Made by a program: the position numbers and the translations under genes
Sequence record: HQ641380.1
DNA length: 59,080 nt
Direction: 5' to 3' (one strand)
From: Enterobacter phage EcP1
The notes under the pieces: model-generated
What the model was told of the DNA's origin: nothing
What the model saw: only the letters and a program-made list of their open reading frames with translations
The model's database searches: none
In this document: positions 14,281-59,080 of the stretch, piece by piece
Position numbering within the stretch: position 1 is the stretch's first letter
Layout of the letters: each line of letters opens with the position of its first letter

Positions 14281-15554
14281 TGGAAGTAAAATTAAACGCA
14301 GATCAGGAAAAAGCAGTACGTGAAGTATCTGGATTTTTACTTGATGATACTAAAAAAGAACACGTTGTATCAGGTGCAGGCGGAACAGGCAAGACATTCA
14401 CTGTAGGGCGTGTATTGGATTCATTAGAAAGAATCAACACGACAGCAGCCCTGTTAGGTGCTAAGAAACTGAATAAGGTTTATTACACAGCATCTACCAA
14501 CAAAGCAGCAGAGGTTCTTTCTAATGCTTCTAATGGTACTGCTTCAACAATCCATAACCTGTTAGGGTTATCAGTAATTAACGATTTTCGTACCGGAAAA
14601 ACAAAGCTTAAGAAGACAGACAGAAATGCTGTAATTTCTGATGCTATTATTGTATGTGACGAAGCCTCTATGGTTAGTGCTGAACTGAAAGCTTTAATCA
14701 AACAGTATACTCAAAATTGTAAAATTATTTATACAGGAGATAAGTATCAATTATTCCCGATAGGTGAAGAAAGCAGCCCTGTATTTGATGATGCTACAAT
14801 AAGTCAGTCAATCTTACTTGAACCAATGAGACAAGATAAAGACTCGCCTATTTATAAACTATGCAATCAATTTCGAAAAACAGTAGAAACAGGTAAATTC
14901 TTTCCTATTATTGGTTCAAAAGGTCATGTTGATTATTTAACTACAGATCAGTATCGTGCAGAAATTATTCAAAATTTCGTACATGAACCAAGAGATGATA
15001 TGAAGATTCTCTGCTATACAAATCCTGAAGTAGTTGGATATAACACGAATATTCGAAAACTTCGTGGTCTACCTCCTACGTTTACAGCAGGGGAAACCAT
15101 TGTATCTAATAATGCTGCCAAATCGATGTCTCAAGATTCCATGCTTGTAATTGAGCGTGAATATCTCATTGATGATGTATCTCAAATTATCGAACATCCG
15201 CAGTATAAATTTAAATGCTATTACGTTTGGATTAATGGTAGCCAATACTTGCAGCCTGTTAATCAGGATGATGTAAAAAAAGTATTGCAACATCTTGCTA
15301 AGAAATCTAAACAAGATGGTGATTGGGAAGATTATTTTTATTTCAAAAATAACATTGCAGATCTGCGACAAAAAGATGCGTCTACTGTACATAAATCTCA
15401 AGGCTCTACATATGATACCGTGTATATTGATTTAAACGATATAGGTAAGTGTTTTAACCGAGTTGACGCCGCACGTTTATTATATGTAGCTGTATCTCGC
15501 CCAACTACCCGCATTGCTTTATACGGAAAATTACCTGACTACTACGGTGGTTAA
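14280..15554 (+). CDS. Dda/RecD-like SF1B DNA helicase
   Basis: Walker A GAGGTGKT, DEAS motif II, GDKYQLFPIG, and VHKSQGSTYD (motifs V/VI). Confidence 0.85.
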   Translation: MEVKLNADQEKAVREVSGFLLDDTKKEHVVSGAGGTGKTFTVGRVLDSLERINTTAALLGAKKLNKVYYTASTNKAAEVLSNASNGTASTIHNLLGLSVINDFRTGKTKLKKTDRNAVISDAIIVCDEASMVSAELKALIKQYTQNCKIIYTGDKYQLFPIGEESSPVFDDATISQSILLEPMRQDKDSPIYKLCNQFRKTVETGKFFPIIGSKGHVDYLTTDQYRAEIIQNFVHEPRDDMKILCYTNPEVVGYNTNIRKLRGLPPTFTAGETIVSNNAAKSMSQDSMLVIEREYLIDDVSQIIEHPQYKFKCYYVWINGSQYLQPVNQDDVKKVLQHLAKKSKQDGDWEDYFYFKNNIADLRQKDASTVHKSQGSTYDTVYIDLNDIGKCFNRVDAARLLYVAVSRPTTRIALYGKLPDYYGG

Positions 15555-15555
15555 T

Positions 15556-16035
15556 ATGAATAATTCATTGGATATCAAAATATGCATTAAAACTGCATTA
15601 TTTAAAAACATCAACGATCATTTAAAATCGACGCTATCAGATATTTTTGAAGCTCATAATAAAATGACAGGGTCTTCTCATAATAAATTTATGTATGATG
15701 GTGAAGTATATTATCGCAATCACACTGTAGCACCTTTTAACGAAACCTTGTTAGAATCGCCACTTCATAACAAGATGGATCAGTATTTAGAATTACTGAC
15801 AAAATATAAAAAAGATGAAAAATTGATTCTTAATTATATTGGCATAATTATATCTATTTCTAACACAGTAAAGGATACCTTTACAAAATTACCTAATGCA
15901 TTAACTGTATTTTGTAATCGTCATATAAATCCTCCACTGGATACAAATTATATTCAGTTTAAAGATTTTAAAAAATATGATGCAGAGATGGATAAATTAA
16001 TAACTTATTATTTAAATTATAATCTACTATTATGA
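15556..16035 (+). CDS. hypothetical protein
   Basis: Start taken just after the helicase stop (MNNSLDIKI). Confidence 0.4.
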   Translation: MNNSLDIKICIKTALFKNINDHLKSTLSDIFEAHNKMTGSSHNKFMYDGEVYYRNHTVAPFNETLLESPLHNKMDQYLELLTKYKKDEKLILNYIGIIISISNTVKDTFTKLPNALTVFCNRHINPPLDTNYIQFKDFKKYDAEMDKLITYYLNYNLLL

Positions 16036-16307
16036 ATATAAAATTAGTGGTACTAATCTGCCCTGCTAAGACTATCGGAGTTGTTAAACTTTTGTTAGGA
16101 GACTGTCCTGAATTTCTGGACAGAAGCCCATCGATAACATTTGGAGAGGAGTATCACTTTTTTTATGAAAATCCATCACTTAAAGTAGTTGACACAATTC
16201 ATAAATATGTAGATGAATGGAAAAAGAAGAACCTACCTTTCAGATGTGAGATAGTGTATAGCATCGGCAACACTGAAACTATCCTATCAGGAGAGTATGT
16301 TACATGA
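16032..16307 (+). CDS. hypothetical protein
   Basis: 91 aa ORF. Confidence 0.4.
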   Translation: MNIKLVVLICPAKTIGVVKLLLGDCPEFLDRSPSITFGEEYHFFYENPSLKVVDTIHKYVDEWKKKNLPFRCEIVYSIGNTETILSGEYVT

Positions 16308-49197: not shown

Positions 49198-51150
49198 TTA
49201 CTTATTGGTACACACAATCTCTACATTAAACTCAACACCATCTGGCAAGGAACTGATAGCAATTGGAGCCATAGTGGTCATATCGATCAGGTACAAATAT
49301 GCAGCACCTGTTGATACGCCAGACTGGTTGTAGAATGGTACAAGCTGATACTTATAGCCACTTGCTTGGTTAAGGCTCTGGGTGAAGATATAAGGATGCC
49401 AGTTACCAGAACCGGGTGTGTAGTTAATCTTAAGAGCAAAGCCACTATCAAAAGGCTCTACGCTTTGCACACCCTGCGGTGAGTATGGGTTTGTATTGAC
49501 TACGAAAGATCCATTACGCTTAGTCAAGCGGCAGATACGACGAAGGCCAATAGCATTGGTTTCCTGCGACTGAAATTTAGGCATTATGACGTTACTCAGA
49601 TTACCTAAATCAATCTCTTTAGGTTTGATGTTAGTCTCAAGAATGTTGTCACGCCCATCAGCACCACGAATGCTTGCAAGGTACTGACCTTGCTCACCGT
49701 AATAGCTGTAATCCCACACAAAATGCTTGAAGTGGTTCATACCACCACCATCTACCTGAATAGCCCATTTGCTTGTAGCCGACCACTGTTGGATAGAGTC
49801 AAACTCAAGCTGTCCTAACTGTGTATAGTATGGGTACTGACCAGCAACTTTAGGGACACATTTAACTGTAATACCATAATCAGCCATGATGATGTTATTC
49901 TTAAAGCTGCAAGCAGTCATCCAGTTAGTAGCCTCTGTGTAAGTAGCATCATCTGTAGGCTCATATGCTTCAATGTATAGGCCGTATTTACCATACTCAA
50001 GACTTAATCCATCAAAGCGACACCAGCATATTGAGTTACTACGCTTAATAGGGTTATTGGTACCATCACGTACGTTATCAAGACGTATACGTAATGAAGT
50101 ACCTAGACGTTCATTATAGTTAGGAAGAAGTTTTACATTCTCAATGGTTAAGTTGCGCAAGTTATTCTTACCAAGTACAAGAGCAACGTTATGATCCCAG
50201 CCCATTAGTTGTGAATCGACAGCTATACGCCCACCACCACGCTTGTCGCTACGGAAGTAGATGTTATCTGTCTCAAATACAAACATATCATCACGCAACG
50301 ATCTGTTAATAATTTGTGAACCAGATTTAAACAAAAAGTTCTTTTTAACATTTATTTTAGTATTGCAATCATAAGAACCGGCTGGAATTACAATTACATT
50401 AACTAAACTTTCATTCTGGAGATCTGCAAGTAATTGACCTATATCTGAACCAAATACTGCCCCTACAGTTCTTATATCTATGCTACCATCTGTAATTCTT
50501 TTTGCAGTCAGGGTATCATTAATACTAACATCTAATAAAGTTGCTGTAGCATTAGTTACATAATACTGTGCTGCACCACCGTCATTAATTGAATTGAATC
50601 CAGAAGTTATTACAAACGTACCTTCAGTAAAACTACCTGATTTTATATGCGCAGCTGTGTCTACATATACAGTGTTAGTACCACCGCTTTCAGTGTTTAT
50701 ATTAACCCACTTATTAAGTGCTTCTCCGCCTGTTGATGCAATTGTAGAATTAGGTGGTACAACTTTATTCAATTCACCATTCCAGCGATACAGACTTTTT
50801 TCAAAAGAAACAACCTGTGTCTTATCAGTTAATGTAAAACCTTTTGAAAAGGTTACATTATACAGAATGTGGTAATTACCGAATTTTAAATTATGTTCAG
50901 TAAGGTCTAATGTTTCTTTATCTGTAGTTAAAACAGGAGCAGAAAATGTAAAAATCTCTGAACCAATTAATTCGGGTAATAACCAGAATGTAGAAGTCTT
51001 GTTATCATAAATGCCTTTGACATTTAATAATTTGGTTCCTGCTTTAGCATATACCACTTCACTGTCATGAAGTCCGAATGAACGAGCTAAAGATAGCATA
51101 TTAGTAGTATGTGCAGTTGAACCGCGAGTTTGATCAAATAATTTTTTCAT
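49198..51150 (-). CDS. tail spike / receptor-binding protein with beta-helix (depolymerase-like) domain
   Basis: 650 aa; repetitive N/G/T/S-rich beta-strand pattern typical of a right-handed beta-helix; adjacent to a tail fiber gene. Confidence 0.5.
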   Translation of the reverse strand: MKKLFDQTRGSTAHTTNMLSLARSFGLHDSEVVYAKAGTKLLNVKGIYDNKTSTFWLLPELIGSEIFTFSAPVLTTDKETLDLTEHNLKFGNYHILYNVTFSKGFTLTDKTQVVSFEKSLYRWNGELNKVVPPNSTIASTGGEALNKWVNINTESGGTNTVYVDTAAHIKSGSFTEGTFVITSGFNSINDGGAAQYYVTNATATLLDVSINDTLTAKRITDGSIDIRTVGAVFGSDIGQLLADLQNESLVNVIVIPAGSYDCNTKINVKKNFLFKSGSQIINRSLRDDMFVFETDNIYFRSDKRGGGRIAVDSQLMGWDHNVALVLGKNNLRNLTIENVKLLPNYNERLGTSLRIRLDNVRDGTNNPIKRSNSICWCRFDGLSLEYGKYGLYIEAYEPTDDATYTEATNWMTACSFKNNIIMADYGITVKCVPKVAGQYPYYTQLGQLEFDSIQQWSATSKWAIQVDGGGMNHFKHFVWDYSYYGEQGQYLASIRGADGRDNILETNIKPKEIDLGNLSNVIMPKFQSQETNAIGLRRICRLTKRNGSFVVNTNPYSPQGVQSVEPFDSGFALKINYTPGSGNWHPYIFTQSLNQASGYKYQLVPFYNQSGVSTGAAYLYLIDMTTMAPIAISSLPDGVEFNVEIVCTNK

Positions 51151-52304
51151 TGAATTTCCTCAACACCTAAATTGCCATTTTCTATTTTTAATTTATAGGA
51201 TTTTAATGTAACTGAATCTTTTAAAATTATGTCATGTTTATTTAGTTCAATCCAAAGACCTAACGGATTTAAATAATTGAATATACCTCCATCAGTATTA
51301 ATCTGATCTGCGGCTACAGTATTTTCATTGATGTGTTTAGGATATACACCAATCCACTGATACCATTTTTTAGAAACACTGTCATAAATGTGATCATTAA
51401 TGGTACGCAAAGTTGCACCGCCTTTGAAAGTGTACCCAGACATTACATTAGGCAGCAGTAATGAATGCACATCTCCACCAATCTGAATAACTACAAAGTC
51501 ATTTTCTTTTACTGGTTCACGAAGCTGTACTAACCCTTCGCTGTTCCACGTAAAATGATACTGAGGTTCTTTACGCAATCCATTAATAAATACTGCTACA
51601 ACAGTTTTAAAGTTGTATGGCGGACGGAATGTTTGCTCACCACCGTTTGCTTTACCGTTATTGTAAACCCAGTTGAAATATTTAAAATTATCCACATTAG
51701 GTGTTTCAGGATCAGCCGGTAAACCAGACAACATAGCAATAACAGTATCACCTTCTTCCAAAGGTTGAGCTAAACGGATGGTCTGGCTTAACTCATCATA
51801 TTCAAAACCTAAACGAGGGTACTGATAATTACCATTTACATAAATACAGGTAACAGCCGCAGTCTGCTCAGGAACAATAATAGATTCCTCTCCACCTTGT
51901 GCAGAACCATTATTGTACACCCATGCAATATCACGAGAACCATCACCGCCTGTACCGGCAGAGGATGTTCCAACTTTAATCCATGAACCAGAATACTGAA
52001 TGCCATTAGGTTTGATGCCACTTTCATCATTATCAATGAAAGCATAATCGACGTATCGCTTCTCTAAACCATCCAGTTCATAAATACGGGCAAAGCGTAC
52101 CTGTTTAGCATCGATATTTTTAAGCTGCTCTACAGATTCAACACAGGCCAACATATTATATTGGGTAAGCATGTCATAGATTGTTTTGATGTAGTGCATG
52201 TTATCGGCAACAAACTTAACAGTCTGATAAGCAGTACCGATAAATTTCTGCACTAAACCTGCATTACCACAATCATGCGGGTAGTTATTCATCATTATAG
52301 CCAT
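51147..52304 (-). CDS. tail fiber / adaptor protein
   Basis: 385 aa; overlaps the start of the tail spike gene. Confidence 0.4.
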   Translation of the reverse strand: MAIMMNNYPHDCGNAGLVQKFIGTAYQTVKFVADNMHYIKTIYDMLTQYNMLACVESVEQLKNIDAKQVRFARIYELDGLEKRYVDYAFIDNDESGIKPNGIQYSGSWIKVGTSSAGTGGDGSRDIAWVYNNGSAQGGEESIIVPEQTAAVTCIYVNGNYQYPRLGFEYDELSQTIRLAQPLEEGDTVIAMLSGLPADPETPNVDNFKYFNWVYNNGKANGGEQTFRPPYNFKTVVAVFINGLRKEPQYHFTWNSEGLVQLREPVKENDFVVIQIGGDVHSLLLPNVMSGYTFKGGATLRTINDHIYDSVSKKWYQWIGVYPKHINENTVAADQINTDGGIFNYLNPLGLWIELNKHDIILKDSVTLKSYKLKIENGNLGVEEIQ

Positions 52305-52999
52305 CCTCGTATTTCGGATTTAATATTAGTGTCGTCTTGGTGTTCGTTGTTCAAATTACGCTGTTCAACTTGTTCACAAGAGTTCTCATATCTTGCCATA
52401 AACTCCTGAGCTTTGGCAGATAATATTTGATTATTCATGTTAGAAAACAAACGTGCAGCAACATAAAAAGATAATGCCTCTAACAAGTATGCAGGCAGAT
52501 CTATATTAGTTGTATCTGGATTTGCATCTAATGGAATCTTTTTCTGATTAGCCAGATAGGTAACAAAAATTACGTTACCATCTACAGGCTGTAAAATCTG
52601 AATACCATTATGTCCAACTTTTTTAAGTGAACAGTGGAATGAGTTATCATTAAAATTTAATTCATTACCGATCTCATTATGAACTTTATGAATACGTAAA
52701 ACATCATCATCAAAAGGTTCATACGGAGAATCAATAATGTATTTAATTGGTTCATCACTGTCAGAAGATTGTGCATACTTGCCATCTAAAATGTATGTGC
52801 CAATCTGTTCATGCATTTCAATAACTACAGATTTCTCATGTAGCATAAAGCGACTACATAAATCAGTAATACCATAATTAATATGAGAAATTACTGTAGG
52901 TATGTGCTTATCTTTAATGGTTCCTGAACCACTATCACCGATAGAAGTATTGGATAATTCACCATAAGATAAGTTTGATAAAAACTCTCTTAGTTTCAT
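52295..52999 (-). CDS. virion/tail-associated protein
   Basis: 234 aa, between the terminase and tail fiber genes. Confidence 0.35.
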   Translation of the reverse strand: MKLREFLSNLSYGELSNTSIGDSGSGTIKDKHIPTVISHINYGITDLCSRFMLHEKSVVIEMHEQIGTYILDGKYAQSSDSDEPIKYIIDSPYEPFDDDVLRIHKVHNEIGNELNFNDNSFHCSLKKVGHNGIQILQPVDGNVIFVTYLANQKKIPLDANPDTTNIDLPAYLLEALSFYVAARLFSNMNNQILSAKAQEFMARYENSCEQVEQRNLNNEHQDDTNIKSEIRGWL

Positions 53000-53008
53000 T
53001 TGGTTCCC

Positions 53009-54616
53009 TTATACAAGGTAGTTGTCCATAGGAGATGAAAGATCTTCATAAGAATCTTCCGTATAATATCTTCCGGCTGTTCCTACATTAGGATTATAAC
53101 TTACTCCGTCAAATGGTTTAACAGGATTCATTAACGGAAGCATAGAAATTGTATCGATACAGTCGTCATGTTTTGATTTAAACCCGCCAACCATAGCCAT
53201 AGACAATTCTTCCAACATTTCTACCATCAGTGGAGTATCTTTCATTTCGATAGGGAAATGAATCTTACCTAATTTAAATAATGGCAATGCCATTAAGAAA
53301 CGAGTCATTTTATCAGAAGCAGGGCGAATACCTGGCTGTTTGCTATTATTCGATGAAGCGAGTTGAAACCATATACTACGGAGCATCATCTCTCTCTGTA
53401 TTAGTGATATAAACCCTGCCTGCTGACCGGATACTTCCACACCGGCAGACTGCACATTATATGCTGGAACCAATCTGAATAACTCATCAAACGCCACATC
53501 GATAGTAGCTTTGGCACACCAACCATCTACCAGATACCAATCTCCTTGTGAGCTATACGCCCACACTGGTATAACGGAAAAGTCGTTTACCTGTTTACCA
53601 CCTACAGAGAAGTCAGAAGTGCTATAGAAAGTGTAATTTTGCGGATTAGTCATTAAATCCTTTCTGGAATACCACTTTATTTCATTGTCCTGAATTAATT
53701 TATCTTCATCAGAGGCGATACGTAACATGTATTCCTGATAGAATGCAGCAAGTTTACCCTGCTCTAAAGCAAACTCATACTCTCTCTTAACGAAAGAGTA
53801 CGGGAACCGGTCTTCCCATGCGCCTTTAAATTCTTTTTCCTCACAAGGGAATTTCTCACAAAGTGGGTATACGTTAACTACCCATGCTCCGGATTCAACC
53901 GCTTCATATAAAATATCTCGCTTATTAAATGGAGTACCGTTGAATATAACCTTACGCTTAAGCGGACTTAATGCAGGTAGTACGCCTTTATACACAGTGT
54001 CATTGATGGTAGCCATAGATGCCTTAGAGTTAGCATCCTCATCACTTACCAGATCATCCAGTACTGCTAATACAGGTCGTTTACCAAATATTTTGGAACC
54101 ACGAATACCAGTCTTAGCACCAAACATCTTCAAGCCAAACTTATTACCTTCCTGATTCACAAACTCAATATAGTTATCTGTAAATTTATATTGAGGAATC
54201 ATATTGAGAAGGAAGTCAGATGAATGGAATCTATGCTCCATATTCTTACGTAAGTTCTTAACACCGTTATCCATAGAGTCACTTACGTAGATAGCACCCG
54301 GTACTGAACCAAAATTAGGCAAGTCTCCGAATACGCCGATGTATAAAAACAGGTATTCAGCAAATACGGTAGTCTTTGCCATACCACGCGCGCATAAGTT
54401 AGCTACATATGGGTTAGGATCAACAATACCTTCCAGCATTTTTAAATGAACAGGAGGTGTTTTGTTTTCCTCGCCTTCTTCACCATTTACTAATTTAATG
54501 AATGAAACAAATTCAATAGCAAATTCGGTAGGAATGTATCGTTCATTTATATGAGCGTAGTCAACCGTATTAAGCCAATCGTCTACAGTTTTCTTCTTTG
54601 GTTGCAATATTGGCAT
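53009..54616 (-). CDS. terminase large subunit
   Basis: 535 aa; Walker A-like ARGMAKTT and Walker B VLAVLDDLVSDE; C-terminal nuclease-like region. Confidence 0.7.
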   Translation of the reverse strand: MPILQPKKKTVDDWLNTVDYAHINERYIPTEFAIEFVSFIKLVNGEEGEENKTPPVHLKMLEGIVDPNPYVANLCARGMAKTTVFAEYLFLYIGVFGDLPNFGSVPGAIYVSDSMDNGVKNLRKNMEHRFHSSDFLLNMIPQYKFTDNYIEFVNQEGNKFGLKMFGAKTGIRGSKIFGKRPVLAVLDDLVSDEDANSKASMATINDTVYKGVLPALSPLKRKVIFNGTPFNKRDILYEAVESGAWVVNVYPLCEKFPCEEKEFKGAWEDRFPYSFVKREYEFALEQGKLAAFYQEYMLRIASDEDKLIQDNEIKWYSRKDLMTNPQNYTFYSTSDFSVGGKQVNDFSVIPVWAYSSQGDWYLVDGWCAKATIDVAFDELFRLVPAYNVQSAGVEVSGQQAGFISLIQREMMLRSIWFQLASSNNSKQPGIRPASDKMTRFLMALPLFKLGKIHFPIEMKDTPLMVEMLEELSMAMVGGFKSKHDDCIDTISMLPLMNPVKPFDGVSYNPNVGTAGRYYTEDSYEDLSSPMDNYLV

Positions 54617-55299
54617 TAATCTTCATCCTTACCGTAGTTAAACAGCGACCGGTGTGCGACTTCTCTGGTAGTAGTCTCACCATTAACAATCTTAGCTTTC
54701 TCAAACGCAGCTAATTCGCTAAGAGTCTGACGCAGTGATACCAATTCAGAAGATTCACGATGGTTAACATCAAGCTGTACACGTTTAGTTTCAGGCTGTT
54801 TAAGGTTATCAGCTAACTTACTTGCAGCCTCAACACGAACTTTAGGTGACACATCCTCATCACGCATAATTGTAGCAAGAGTATTTATAGACTCCTGATA
54901 AATATCACGATTAAGAATATGAGTTGGTATAAGAGTTTGTTCTGTAATGAGATTAACTAACTTATTTTTATTGTATGCACTCACATAACTATGAATACTA
55001 TCCATGGGCTTGCCACTGCTCATATGTGCCTGATACCGATCAGGGAAAGTTTTGCAGTAAGCTTCAAAGTTAGAATGCCCCATCATTTTGAATGAGACAT
55101 ACCGAACAGCATTAATGTAATCATCCAATTTAAACTTACCTGAACCAAGTACAGAAGAATAAGAAATAATATTATCTCTCATCATCTCCTGAGTATCAGG
55201 GTCAGTAAGCAATTGGTTATACCGGTCTACAGTAGCCTGATCTACAGTCATACGTAGGCTTTGAGGTAAGGCATCTTTAAATTCTGCAATAGTAAGCAT
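54616..55299 (-). CDS. terminase small subunit (putative)
   Basis: 227 aa, immediately upstream of and overlapping the large-subunit start. Confidence 0.4.
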   Translation of the reverse strand: MLTIAEFKDALPQSLRMTVDQATVDRYNQLLTDPDTQEMMRDNIISYSSVLGSGKFKLDDYINAVRYVSFKMMGHSNFEAYCKTFPDRYQAHMSSGKPMDSIHSYVSAYNKNKLVNLITEQTLIPTHILNRDIYQESINTLATIMRDEDVSPKVRVEAASKLADNLKQPETKRVQLDVNHRESSELVSLRQTLSELAAFEKAKIVNGETTTREVAHRSLFNYGKDED

Positions 55300-55468: not shown

Positions 55469-55543
55469 GGTAAGTTAGCTAATAGGTGAAGCACCTGACT
55501 GTTAATCAGTGATAGAGTGGTTCGATTCCACTACTTACCGCCA
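55469..55543 (+). tRNA. tRNA-Asn (GTT), tentative
   Basis: Acceptor GGTAAGT/ACTTACC, T-arm AGTGG-TTCGATT-CCACT, anticodon loop CTGTTAA, encoded CCA; one mismatch in the anticodon stem and a 3 bp D-stem. Confidence 0.5.
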
Positions 55544-55546
55544 TTT

Positions 55547-55623
55547 CGGGATATAGCTCAGTTTGGTAGAGTGTCTGCTTTGGGAGCAGAATGTCGTTGG
55601 TTCAAGTCCAGCTATCCCGACCA
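55547..55623 (+). tRNA. tRNA-Pro (TGG)
   Basis: Cloverleaf: acceptor CGGGATA/TATCCCG, D-arm GCTC..GAGT, anticodon loop TTTGGGA, T-arm GTTGG-TTCAAGT-CCAGC, encoded CCA. Confidence 0.75.
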
Positions 55624-55627
55624 ATTA

Positions 55628-55704
55628 GTGCCTTTAGCTCAGACGGTTAGAGCAGCCGACTCATAATCGGTAGGTCACAGGTTCAAATCCTGTAGGGCGC
55701 ACCA
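55628..55704 (+). tRNA. tRNA-Met (CAT)
   Basis: D-arm GCTC-AGACGGTTA-GAGC, anticodon loop CTCATAA, T-arm ACAGG-TTCAAAT-CCTGT, acceptor AGGGCGC, encoded CCA. Confidence 0.75.
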
Positions 55705-57810: not shown

Positions 57811-57839
57811 TTCTATCTAATTAATCTCAATTGAGATTG

Positions 57840-57869
57840 GGCTACTCCTATGAGTAGCCTTTATTTTTT
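57840..57869 (+). terminator. strong rho-independent terminator
   Basis: GGCTACTC-CTAT-GAGTAGCC followed by TTTATTTTTT. Confidence 0.8.
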
Positions 57870-57907
57870 ACTGTCTACTAGACAGAATACTACTAAGGAT
57901 ATCTCTC

Positions 57908-58333
57908 ATGAAATCTAAGACTGGTTATATTATCGGTACTCTTAAGAAGCGTAATGAATCTCTGTCTCAAGAGAATGACAAACTTAAAGATGAAGTAGAA
58001 AGACTGAACGTGGAACTTAGTGAAGCTGCACATAATATTAAAACTATGCAGGACTTCGCAAGCAAGAACCAAAGTGAATTAATTAATAAAGATAATCAGA
58101 TTCGTAATTTAGCTAAATCTCTGATGTATAAAGATGAGCGTAATACTAAACGAGATGTTTTATTGAAAAAGTATGACGCTGATAATAACAGGCTAAGTTT
58201 TGAATTATTTGAACAGACTACTGAAACTGAAAAGTGGAAGGAGAAGTATGAATCCTTACTTAAGTACGTAAGAAATATTGGTATCACTATCGTTATCTTC
58301 GGTTTAATCATTCTGTTCACTCAATACATGTAG
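57908..58333 (+). CDS. coiled-coil protein with C-terminal transmembrane anchor
   Basis: 141 aa; heptad-rich K/E sequence and C-terminal ITIVIFGLIILF. Confidence 0.5.
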   Translation: MKSKTGYIIGTLKKRNESLSQENDKLKDEVERLNVELSEAAHNIKTMQDFASKNQSELINKDNQIRNLAKSLMYKDERNTKRDVLLKKYDADNNRLSFELFEQTTETEKWKEKYESLLKYVRNIGITIVIFGLIILFTQYM

Positions 58334-58341
58334 GAATCAAT

Positions 58342-58521
58342 CATGTTCAATAACTTCTTCACAGGTATTGCTGTTATCAATGGGACAGCATTAGTAATTT
58401 ACTTTCTGATATGCGTGCTAGCTAATACAAAAACTCATATGTCACGAGTACTTCTGTACATCGTAATCTATACATTGGTATTCGCTACATTAGCTGCATG
58501 GTCTAAAGGAATACTTGTATA
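58342..58521 (+). CDS. small two-TM membrane protein (59 aa, not in the track)
   Basis: AGGAA RBS; hydrophobic helices GIAVINGTALVIYFLICVL and LLYIVIYTLVFATLAAW. Confidence 0.35.
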
Positions 58522-58757
58522 ATTATACAGTATCTTAATAGCTCCTGTATCGCATTCTAACGAGAGATAGCTCAGGGATGAGCATTGCTATAGAGAAATG
58601 GAGATCGTCAAGCTGGATGTCACTACATTCTGTTTAATCATATCTCCTTTTCTTTCTCTATCACTGTCTCTCTTAAACTAATATCTGCCTTAAACTCTAT
58701 CTCAAAATCTATCATTCCAACTTAACTCAACTTAAAGTTTAACTTTCAGGAGACTCC

Positions 58758-59080
58758 ATGTTTAATCTCATCCAAGGAGACATATTTAAACAACAAGCTG
58801 ATGCTGTGTGTATTACTACTAACGGTAATATACGTTCAGATGGCAGAGCTGTAATGGGTGCTGGCATAGCTAAGACATTCAGAGATTTGTTTCCTACCTT
58901 AGATTTAGAGTTAGCTGAATCACTGAGAACCAAAGGAAACATATGCACTGTACTAAGACAGCATTTCAATGGTGTATACATAATTGCTTTCCCTACCAAA
59001 CATAATTGGAGAGATAATTCATCTCTGGAACTGATAAAACAATCTGCTATACAACTTATTGAAATAGCAGACTCACTAAA
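58758..59080 (+). CDS. macro domain (ADP-ribose binding/processing) protein, 3' partial
   Basis: AGGAGA RBS; ADAVCITTNGNIRSDGRAVMGAGIAKTF matches the macro domain core (N..N, G.GI/VA); the ORF runs off the window end. Confidence 0.55.
   Translation, partial: MFNLIQGDIFKQQADAVCITTNGNIRSDGRAVMGAGIAKTFRDLFPTLDLELAESLRTKGNICTVLRQHFNGVYIIAFPTKHNWRDNSSLELIKQSAIQLIEIADSL

Follow-up and report, generated by a model that had tools for sequence, protein, structure and literature searches.

The DarG antitoxins and the phage proteins named AdfM provide examples of macrodomains that act on ADP-ribosylated DNA. DarG (DarG2; PDB 5M31, 5M3E and 5M3I; NCBIfam model NF048014) is a protein of about 340 aa encoded in a bacterial toxin-antitoxin locus, and has a C-terminal DarT-binding domain in addition to its macrodomain; the macrodomain suffices alone as an antitoxin (PMC5179494). 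In the Thermus aquaticus (Taq) protein, K80 is essential, the N22A mutation strongly impairs activity, and a K29E mutant is also impaired (Jankevicius et al., PMC5179494). Trp83, which is Ala in the human protein TARG1, is placed to stack on the modified thymine, and the loop from G117 to G121 grips the ADP-ribose (PMC5179494). [quoted passage not shown] PhiKZ gp104, an AdfM, takes the ADP-ribose added by DarT2 off DNA and gives protection to the phage (Cell Rep 2026, PMC13309987), and T4 tk.4 was found by transposon sequencing and a clean knockout to be required on DarTG2 hosts (bioRxiv 10.1101/2025.11.20.689424). An orphan antitoxin against DarTG1, AdfN, is also carried by phages (Nat Commun 2025, PMC11825919); it is based on the NADAR domain, the DarG1/AdfN domain that erases the guanine adducts of DarT1 (PMC11825919). 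Macro domains are found in 11% of podoviruses and 41% of myoviruses, and the substrate range of a macrodomain is not reliably readable from its sequence (PMC9503650).

We examined a macro-domain gene located at the end of the window, by which we mean the whole 59,080-nt stretch of Enterobacter phage EcP1 (HQ641380.1) that was analyzed. The ORF opens with an ATG at 58758-58760 on the plus strand and continues stop-free for 107 codons plus 2 nt to the window end (58758..59080), with a Shine-Dalgarno-like AGGAG, read from the sequence, located 5 nt before the ATG (58748..58752, plus strand). Both peptides quoted in the original prediction, ADAVCITTNGN and DGRAVMGAGIAKTF, are found in this ORF. 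The prediction that a macro-domain ORF is cut by the window end was borne out by a large protein collection, in which P0001, a protein of 146 aa, is 100% identical to the fragment across all 107 aa. We therefore read the ORF as the 5' part of a gene for a 146-aa DarG2-like macrodomain, predicted to be of the AdfM type. The gene for P0001 is present on 13 contigs, of which nine measure 50-200 kb and the largest about 65.3 kb; the position of the macro gene varies among them, as expected for circularly permuted assemblies. The contigs have 93-97% nucleotide identity to the window, indicating that they are close relatives and represent a separate genome. For this reason the C-terminal 39 aa, including the phosphate-binding loop PGCSNGRL, which lie beyond the window, are deduced from the relatives. 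We considered whether the start of the window might carry on the macro ORF through circular permutation and rejected this idea, as no continuation of the frame is found there; about 6.4 kb of the genome, between the end of the window and its start, is absent from the window.

Two further features of this stretch were noted at the nucleotide level. An 86-aa TTG-initiated ORF on the minus strand (58739-58999) lies antisense to the macro gene and is almost certainly spurious, being wholly contained within a well-supported coding region. The 323 nt of the macro ORF have no differences from the relatives, and 58725-59080 is the longest run of perfect nucleotide identity, of at least 356 nt because the window end cuts it, against a mean divergence of 6.8%. 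Perfect conservation of the ORF was rejected as a mark of special selection, since other perfect runs of about 310 nt are found at 51465-51776, 52431-52738 and 52756-53065; these are consistent with ordinary mosaicism in a genome that is a recombination mosaic.

Profile searches were performed with both the fragment and the full-length protein. The fragment fails the Pfam Macro model (PF01661) with 13.8 bits against a gathering threshold of 22 bits, and the full-length 146-aa protein passes it with 29.9 bits. PHROG 335 is matched at an E-value of 1e-16 by the fragment and of 6e-31 by the full-length protein. The PADLOC DarG model gives 83.8 bits (E 4e-24) over profile positions 1-134 of 329, and antitoxin_DarG (NF048014), the only NCBIfam match, gives 79.9 bits (E 2e-22) over positions 3-136 of 338, a match confined to the macro part of the profile. 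These E-values place the macro assignment far outside what chance would give. Among PDB sequences, the DarG macrodomains of M. tuberculosis (E 2e-11) and T. aquaticus (E 2e-8) match best, followed by Thermosipho DarTG and then by human TARG1 at E 3e-4. With a family profile built from 25 relatives, the DarG entries are found at E 1e-19 and 9e-18 and TARG1 at 2e-12. An AlphaFold2 model built on the family alignment has a pLDDT of 94.1 and a pTM of 0.89, and in a Foldseek search of the PDB the top three hits to it are the three DarG macrodomain entries (TM 0.80-0.81), with TARG1 next. The model has the three-layer alpha/beta/alpha macro fold with a Gly-rich ADP-ribose-binding loop, all of its top PDB fold matches are macrodomains (TM about 0.8), and the loops AVMGAGIA (31-38) and PGCSNGRL are kept among the relatives. 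The nearest characterized relatives, by sequence and by predicted fold, are thus DarG antitoxin macrodomains.

The closest database relatives, at 47-51% identity, are proteins of T4-like Proteus, Morganella and Providencia phages that are labeled 'hypothetical' or 'phosphatase', and it is the label 'phosphatase' or 'A1pp motif', a legacy of PHROG 335 and T4 tk.4, that raises the alternative of an ADP-ribose-1''-phosphate phosphatase of the Poa1p/A1pp type, clearing by-products of tRNA or RNA repair. Such a role would fit the tRNAs carried by the phage, the position of the Proteus phage PM2 homologue five genes from an RNA ligase, and the RNA ligase at the locus of another homologue. In the Foldseek search, however, yeast Poa1p, from which the legacy label derives, appears only at rank 32 and lower, with 14-18% identity and an E-value of about 4e-6 as against 3e-12 for DarG, so that the closest similarity of the protein is not to Poa1p-like macro proteins. 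Furthermore, no RNA ligase, KptA or 2H gene is present in the annotated flanks of the phage gene, and T4 tk.4, which is labeled in the same way, acts as an anti-DarTG2 gene (bioRxiv 10.1101/2025.11.20.689424). We consider a phosphatase function highly improbable.

The residues required by DarG were located in an alignment of the family. Residues N22, T79, K80, W83, G117, N120 and G121 of Taq DarG correspond to N22, T80, K81, W84, G118, N121 and G122 of the phage protein. N22, K81, G118 and G122 are invariant in all 25 relatives, and the position of W84 is occupied by Trp in 22 of the 25 and by Tyr in the other 3. The part of the protein encoded within the window contains N22, the AVMGAGIA loop, T80 and K81 (the putative catalytic Lys), and W84. 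The original prediction had named the lack of the catalytic residues in the full-length protein as the finding that would speak against it; the full-length relative retains them, along with the C-terminal PGCSNGRL loop. Differences from DarG are seen as well: a 6-residue insertion (residues 24-29) after N22 marks the clade and is absent from DarG and from PhiKZ gp104, and Ala is found in place of Taq K29.

The same alignment serves to distinguish DarG from TARG1 (OARD1; PDB 4J5S). TARG1 is in the same macrodomain sub-clade, is similar in size, shares the catalytic Lys, and is the second-best neighbor by both structure and sequence, making it conceivable that the phage protein is a TARG1-like protein de-ADP-ribosylase that would reverse the modification of phage or host proteins by an ART toxin or defense system. 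TARG1 catalysis is assigned to Lys84 and Asp125; the Lys is kept in the phage protein as K81, but D125 aligns to a Gly (G122), as it does in DarG, and W84 aligns to the Ala of TARG1. The phage protein is therefore DarG-like at both of the positions that separate DarG from TARG1. TARG1 also scores below DarG, by 6-7 orders of magnitude with the family profile, and no ART gene is seen among the flanking genes. An enzyme of the TARG1 type acting on proteins is, from these comparisons, quite unlikely, and the residues favor the assignment to DarG.

Although DarG provides the best match by sequence and by fold, with N22, T79, K80, W83 and G117/N120/G121 conserved, the phage protein differs from it in organization. 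At 146 aa as opposed to about 340 aa it does not have the C-terminal DarT-binding domain, and its score of 79.9 bits against the NF048014 equivalog falls short of the 250-bit full-length cutoff. Its gene is in a lytic phage with no adjacent DarT gene, as opposed to a bacterial toxin-antitoxin locus; no member of the DarT/ART family was found next to the macro gene in precomputed Pfam hits covering up to 10 kb on each side in six related contigs. Having neither a DarT-binding domain nor a DarT neighbor, the protein is by its sequence a stand-alone "orphan antitoxin" and not a DarG. In AdfN as in the EcP1 protein, the enzymatic half of a DarTG antitoxin is carried by a phage, in the case of AdfN to erase ADP-ribose from DNA, but the NADAR and macro folds are unrelated, the adducts are on guanine in one case and thymine in the other, and EcP1 is without NADAR. 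Local HMM searches for a second anti-DarT module revealed neither a NADAR domain nor a YpsA-type SLOG domain in the window or in the missing segment.

The protein resembles AdfM in being a phage-encoded stand-alone DarG2-like macrodomain of about 150 aa (146 aa in an N4-like genome) with no toxin-binding domain, in belonging to PHROG 335, which is common to it, PhiKZ gp104 and T4 Tk.4, and in having the active-site Asn and Lys of PhiKZ AdfM (N23 and K78, equivalent to Taq DarG N22 and K80) as N22 and K81. It is 32% identical to PhiKZ gp104 (BLASTP E 2e-18, 64 bits; its score against M. tuberculosis DarG is also 64 bits) and 25% identical to T4 Tk.4 (E 5e-5). It is nearer to each of these validated proteins than they are to one another, PhiKZ gp104 and T4 Tk.4 being barely alignable (21 bits). 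Since two divergent AdfMs share a phenotype and the phage protein lies between them with the active site of DarG, the parsimonious reading is that it does the same job. The protein differs from the AdfMs in its low identity (32% and 25%) and in the insertion after N22. EcP1 is also an N4-like podovirus and does not form a phage nucleus as PhiKZ does, so no nuclear import would be involved. Unlike the EcP1 protein, T4 Tk.4 does not have the Asn, Lys and Trp; in the family alignment T4 tk.4 (locus L008, 8923-9390) has Gln at the catalytic Lys, Pro at the Trp, and no aligned Asn. Either Tk.4 uses another mechanism or the alignment may be unreliable at 25% identity.

A further alternative within the range of nucleic-acid substrates is that the protein removes ADP-ribose from RNA, for example to counter mRNA ADP-ribosylation by systems of the CmdTAC type. 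Defense by mRNA-targeting ARTs exists, and macrodomains can act on nucleic-acid adducts generally (PMC9503650). We found no specific similarity to an RNA-specific eraser and no pointer to RNA in the gene context, and all validated relatives act against DarT2, leaving an RNA substrate very unlikely.

The family to which the protein belongs is large. An exhaustive profile search identified 11,712 cluster representatives at E<=1e-3, of which 1,472 remain at the stricter E<=1e-30, and the best 150 members are mostly stand-alone proteins of 145-165 aa. Longer relatives of 290-405 aa with an N-terminal macro domain were considered as true DarG proteins and rejected, all of them scoring below 80 bits against the 250-bit cutoff. 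The extra domains of longer relatives include NADAR, YpsA and others, in the arrangements Macro-NADAR (P0077), NADAR-Macro-YpsA/SLOG (P0099), DUF4326-Macro-NADAR-YpsA (P0031, 634 aa), Macro-YpsA (P0119), SLOG-Macro (P0047), and Macro with the finger domain of DNA polymerase III alpha (P0108).

It is because the clade is fused to NADAR, SLOG and DUF4326 domains that the main rival to a DNA substrate is a role for the macrodomain in processing soluble ADP-ribose derivatives, such as the gcADPR or His-ADPR of Thoeris-type systems, O-acetyl-ADPr, or the products of NADase effectors. The protein would then work with DUF4326 and SLOG-like proteins of the phage, blunting signaling or NAD-depletion immunity with no repair of DNA. 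Exactly this role, the processing of soluble ADP-ribose derivatives, was proposed by Iyer, Burroughs and Aravind for DUF4326-SLOG-Macro-NADAR fusions (PMC9503650), and close relatives of the EcP1 protein are fused to YpsA/SLOG, NADAR and DUF4326, as in the 634-aa P0031. N4-like phages are reported to be rich in anti-signaling functions, and the ThsA of Thoeris II binds His-ADPR by a macro domain. The phage lineage itself has DUF4326 and weakly SLOG-like genes in the early block that contains the macro gene, about 5 kb further downstream: in related contig L001, within the segment missing from the window, 15356-15877 and 15889-16209 encode a protein matching DUF4326 at 90 bits and another, of 173 aa, whose DprA/SLOG hits fall below threshold. 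KpCHEMY26, an N4-like Klebsiella phage of another genus, also carries DUF4326 in the same arm.

Several points weigh against such a role. The closest characterized relatives by sequence and fold are the DNA-specific DarG macrodomains, and there is conservation of the Trp whose proposed role is stacking on the modified thymine. The phage is without NADAR, and the SLOG-like match is below the Pfam cutoffs. The NADAR domain has in the meantime proved to be an enzyme that removes ADP-ribose from guanine in DNA (PMC11825919), so the fusions suit a DNA substrate equally well. Indeed the Macro-NADAR protein looks, by its domain composition, like a dual eraser of DarT1 and DarT2 modifications in one polypeptide, a reading that backs action on DNA. 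The original prediction had offered the breakdown of ADP-ribose-derived signaling molecules as its alternative; we consider soluble derivatives an unlikely substrate. On a related proposal, which rests on the 6-residue insertion by the active-site Asn and on the recurrent fusion to NADAR, YpsA/SLOG and DUF4326, the macro clade would be one component of a phage pathway of several enzymes for erasing or recycling either ADP-ribose adducts or immune signals derived from ADP-ribose, divided here among the early genes for the macro, DUF4326 and SLOG-like proteins, and would not be a dedicated anti-DarT2 enzyme. This proposal we regard as doubtful, and we continue to favor modified DNA as the substrate.

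The position of the gene in the phage genome bears on when it might be expressed. The genome is that of an N4-like (Schitoviridae) podophage of about 65.3 kb with 36.9% G+C, recognizable by a minus-strand ORF of 3,524 aa, the size of a virion RNA polymerase (vRNAP), and by a terminase 59% identical to N4 gp68. Many N4 relatives are equally close to this terminase (59%), and megablast against 50,697 deposited phage genomes identified no close relative of the region. The late genes, which are on the minus strand, finish at 55299. The early block is opened from 55469 by three tandem tRNA genes (Asn-GTT, Pro-TGG and Met-CAT; 55469-55704, plus strand), which are kept in the relatives, and then comes a run of small plus-strand ORFs, the macro gene among them, that extends to the RNA polymerase genes; in the related contigs the macro gene is followed by an N4 gp2-like gene and a gene for a single-subunit RNA polymerase. 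The macro gene of KpCHEMY26 occupies the equivalent arm, just ahead of the genes for the RNA polymerase subunits. The macro gene sits in the early/middle arm, and by its syntenic position relative to N4 we infer that it would be expressed early. We also observed, among the minus-strand genes, a 650-aa tail-spike (49198-51150) of which only the N-terminal 280 aa or so match known phages; this part is the adaptor module of Ackermannviridae and of G7C-like phages of Enterobacterales, and the receptor-binding part has no match among known phages.

The original prediction also placed two small membrane proteins upstream of the macro gene, one with a coiled coil and a transmembrane segment and the other of 59 aa with two transmembrane segments. 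Both ORFs are present with predicted hydrophobic segments, on the basis of which both products are plausibly membrane-associated. The first, p141 (57908..58333, plus strand), is a 141-aa coiled-coil protein with weak coiled-coil-type Pfam hits and a C-terminal hydrophobic anchor, its single hydrophobic segment being at residues 120-138 (Kyte-Doolittle 1.95). Its central 77 aa or so (58026-58265) are wholly replaced in six close relatives, with the N-terminal 38 aa and the C-terminal anchor conserved, so that the center looks like a cassette swapped within one mosaic gene. The second, p59 (58343..58522, plus strand), has hydrophobic segments at residues 9-27 (Kyte-Doolittle 2.46) and 36-54 (2.07), and is intact in 6 of 6 relatives, with 4 synonymous and 4 non-synonymous differences.

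The suggestion that these membrane proteins are functionally linked to the macro gene did not find support. A non-coding spacer or 5' leader of 235 nt (58523..58757, plus strand) separates p59 from the macro gene, and no homologue of p141 or p59 was found at the seven other macro loci analyzed. The neighborhoods of the homologues are unrelated, consisting of head genes in PhiKZ, vs and tk in T4, genes for RNR, dCMP deaminase and dUTPase in a metagenomic phage, and a UvsW helicase gene in another; genes for DNA and nucleotide metabolism adjoin homologues of the macro gene. The plus strand of the spacer contains no sigma-70-like promoter and no terminator-like site. With no such terminator between p59 and the macro gene, co-transcription is possible, and p141, p59 and the macro gene are a possible transcription unit. 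Its upstream limit would be marked by a strong terminator-like hairpin and T-run just upstream of p141 (57839..57869, plus strand; 9-bp stem with 5 G-C pairs).

A structured RNA or riboswitch in the spacer was considered and rejected, there being no Rfam hit at E<=1 and a fold z-score of only -1.97. The apparent 98% conservation of the spacer is a consequence of the relatives being near-identical to one another; relative to the window it comes to about 95%, close to the figure for neighboring DNA. Within the spacer, 58561-58612 weakly resembles the 5' two-thirds of the tRNA-Pro of the phage (55547-55623), with a local alignment score of 30 compared to 17.8 +/- 3.5 (maximum 31) for shuffled sequences. 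Neither ARAGORN nor Rfam (E<=1) made a call for this stretch, which may be what is left of a decayed tRNA ahead of the macro gene. A perfect hairpin, CTGTCT-ACT-AGACAG (57871-57885; 6-bp stem and 3-nt loop), is found between the terminator-like hairpin, at 57839-57860, and the start of p141. Its geometry recalls the hairpin promoters of the N4 virion RNA polymerase, and it has no recurring flank. Hairpin promoters of the N4 type were set aside as evidence, the hairpins with a 5-6-bp stem and 3-nt loop being few, their flanks not recurring, and the comparison having no control.

The original prediction that the macro protein reverses DarT-like ADP-ribosylation is supported by its closeness to DarG in sequence and predicted fold, by the kept residues, and by its two validated phage homologues. 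From the sequence comparisons and the model, we conclude with high confidence that the protein is an active ADP-ribosyl hydrolase of the DarG/TARG1 clade. Its natural substrate is probably DNA modified by DarT2, an assignment in which our confidence is moderate. Taken as a whole, and drawing on the analogy to the validated AdfMs, the explanation that we favor and hold to be reasonably probable is that the protein hydrolyzes ADP-ribose from DarT2-modified thymidines in the phage DNA in the manner of AdfM. According to this explanation, the gene would be expressed from the early-gene arm of the N4-like podophage, and the protein would bind the ADP-ribose put by the DarT2 toxin of the host on thymidines of single-stranded phage DNA. 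Lys81 would cleave the bond between ribose and thymine, and Asn22 and Trp84 would hold the modified nucleotide in position. With the ADP-ribose released, the DNA would be replicable again, allowing the phage to evade the abortive defense mediated by DarTG2. The low identity to the AdfMs, the 6-residue insertion, the Ala at the position of Taq K29, and the fusions to SLOG and DUF4326 are points against this explanation.

The macro gene of EcP1 is by its sequence a further predicted member of the AdfM family, here in an N4-like phage; the mechanism is one already described, and the gene brings no new type of biology with it. If confirmed, the finding would extend AdfM counter-defense to the N4-like podophages, beyond the T4-like myophages and the nucleus-forming jumbo phages. 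It would also strengthen the case that a very large phage family, whose members have long been mislabeled as 'phosphatase' or 'ADP-ribose binding protein', is for the most part made up of anti-DarTG2 DNA de-ADP-ribosylases, and would help to correct the annotation of these proteins and to predict phage host range on strains carrying DarTG2, as for example in phage therapy. Should the multi-enzyme pathway instead prove true, it would provide the first defined role for DUF4326 and viral SLOG proteins.
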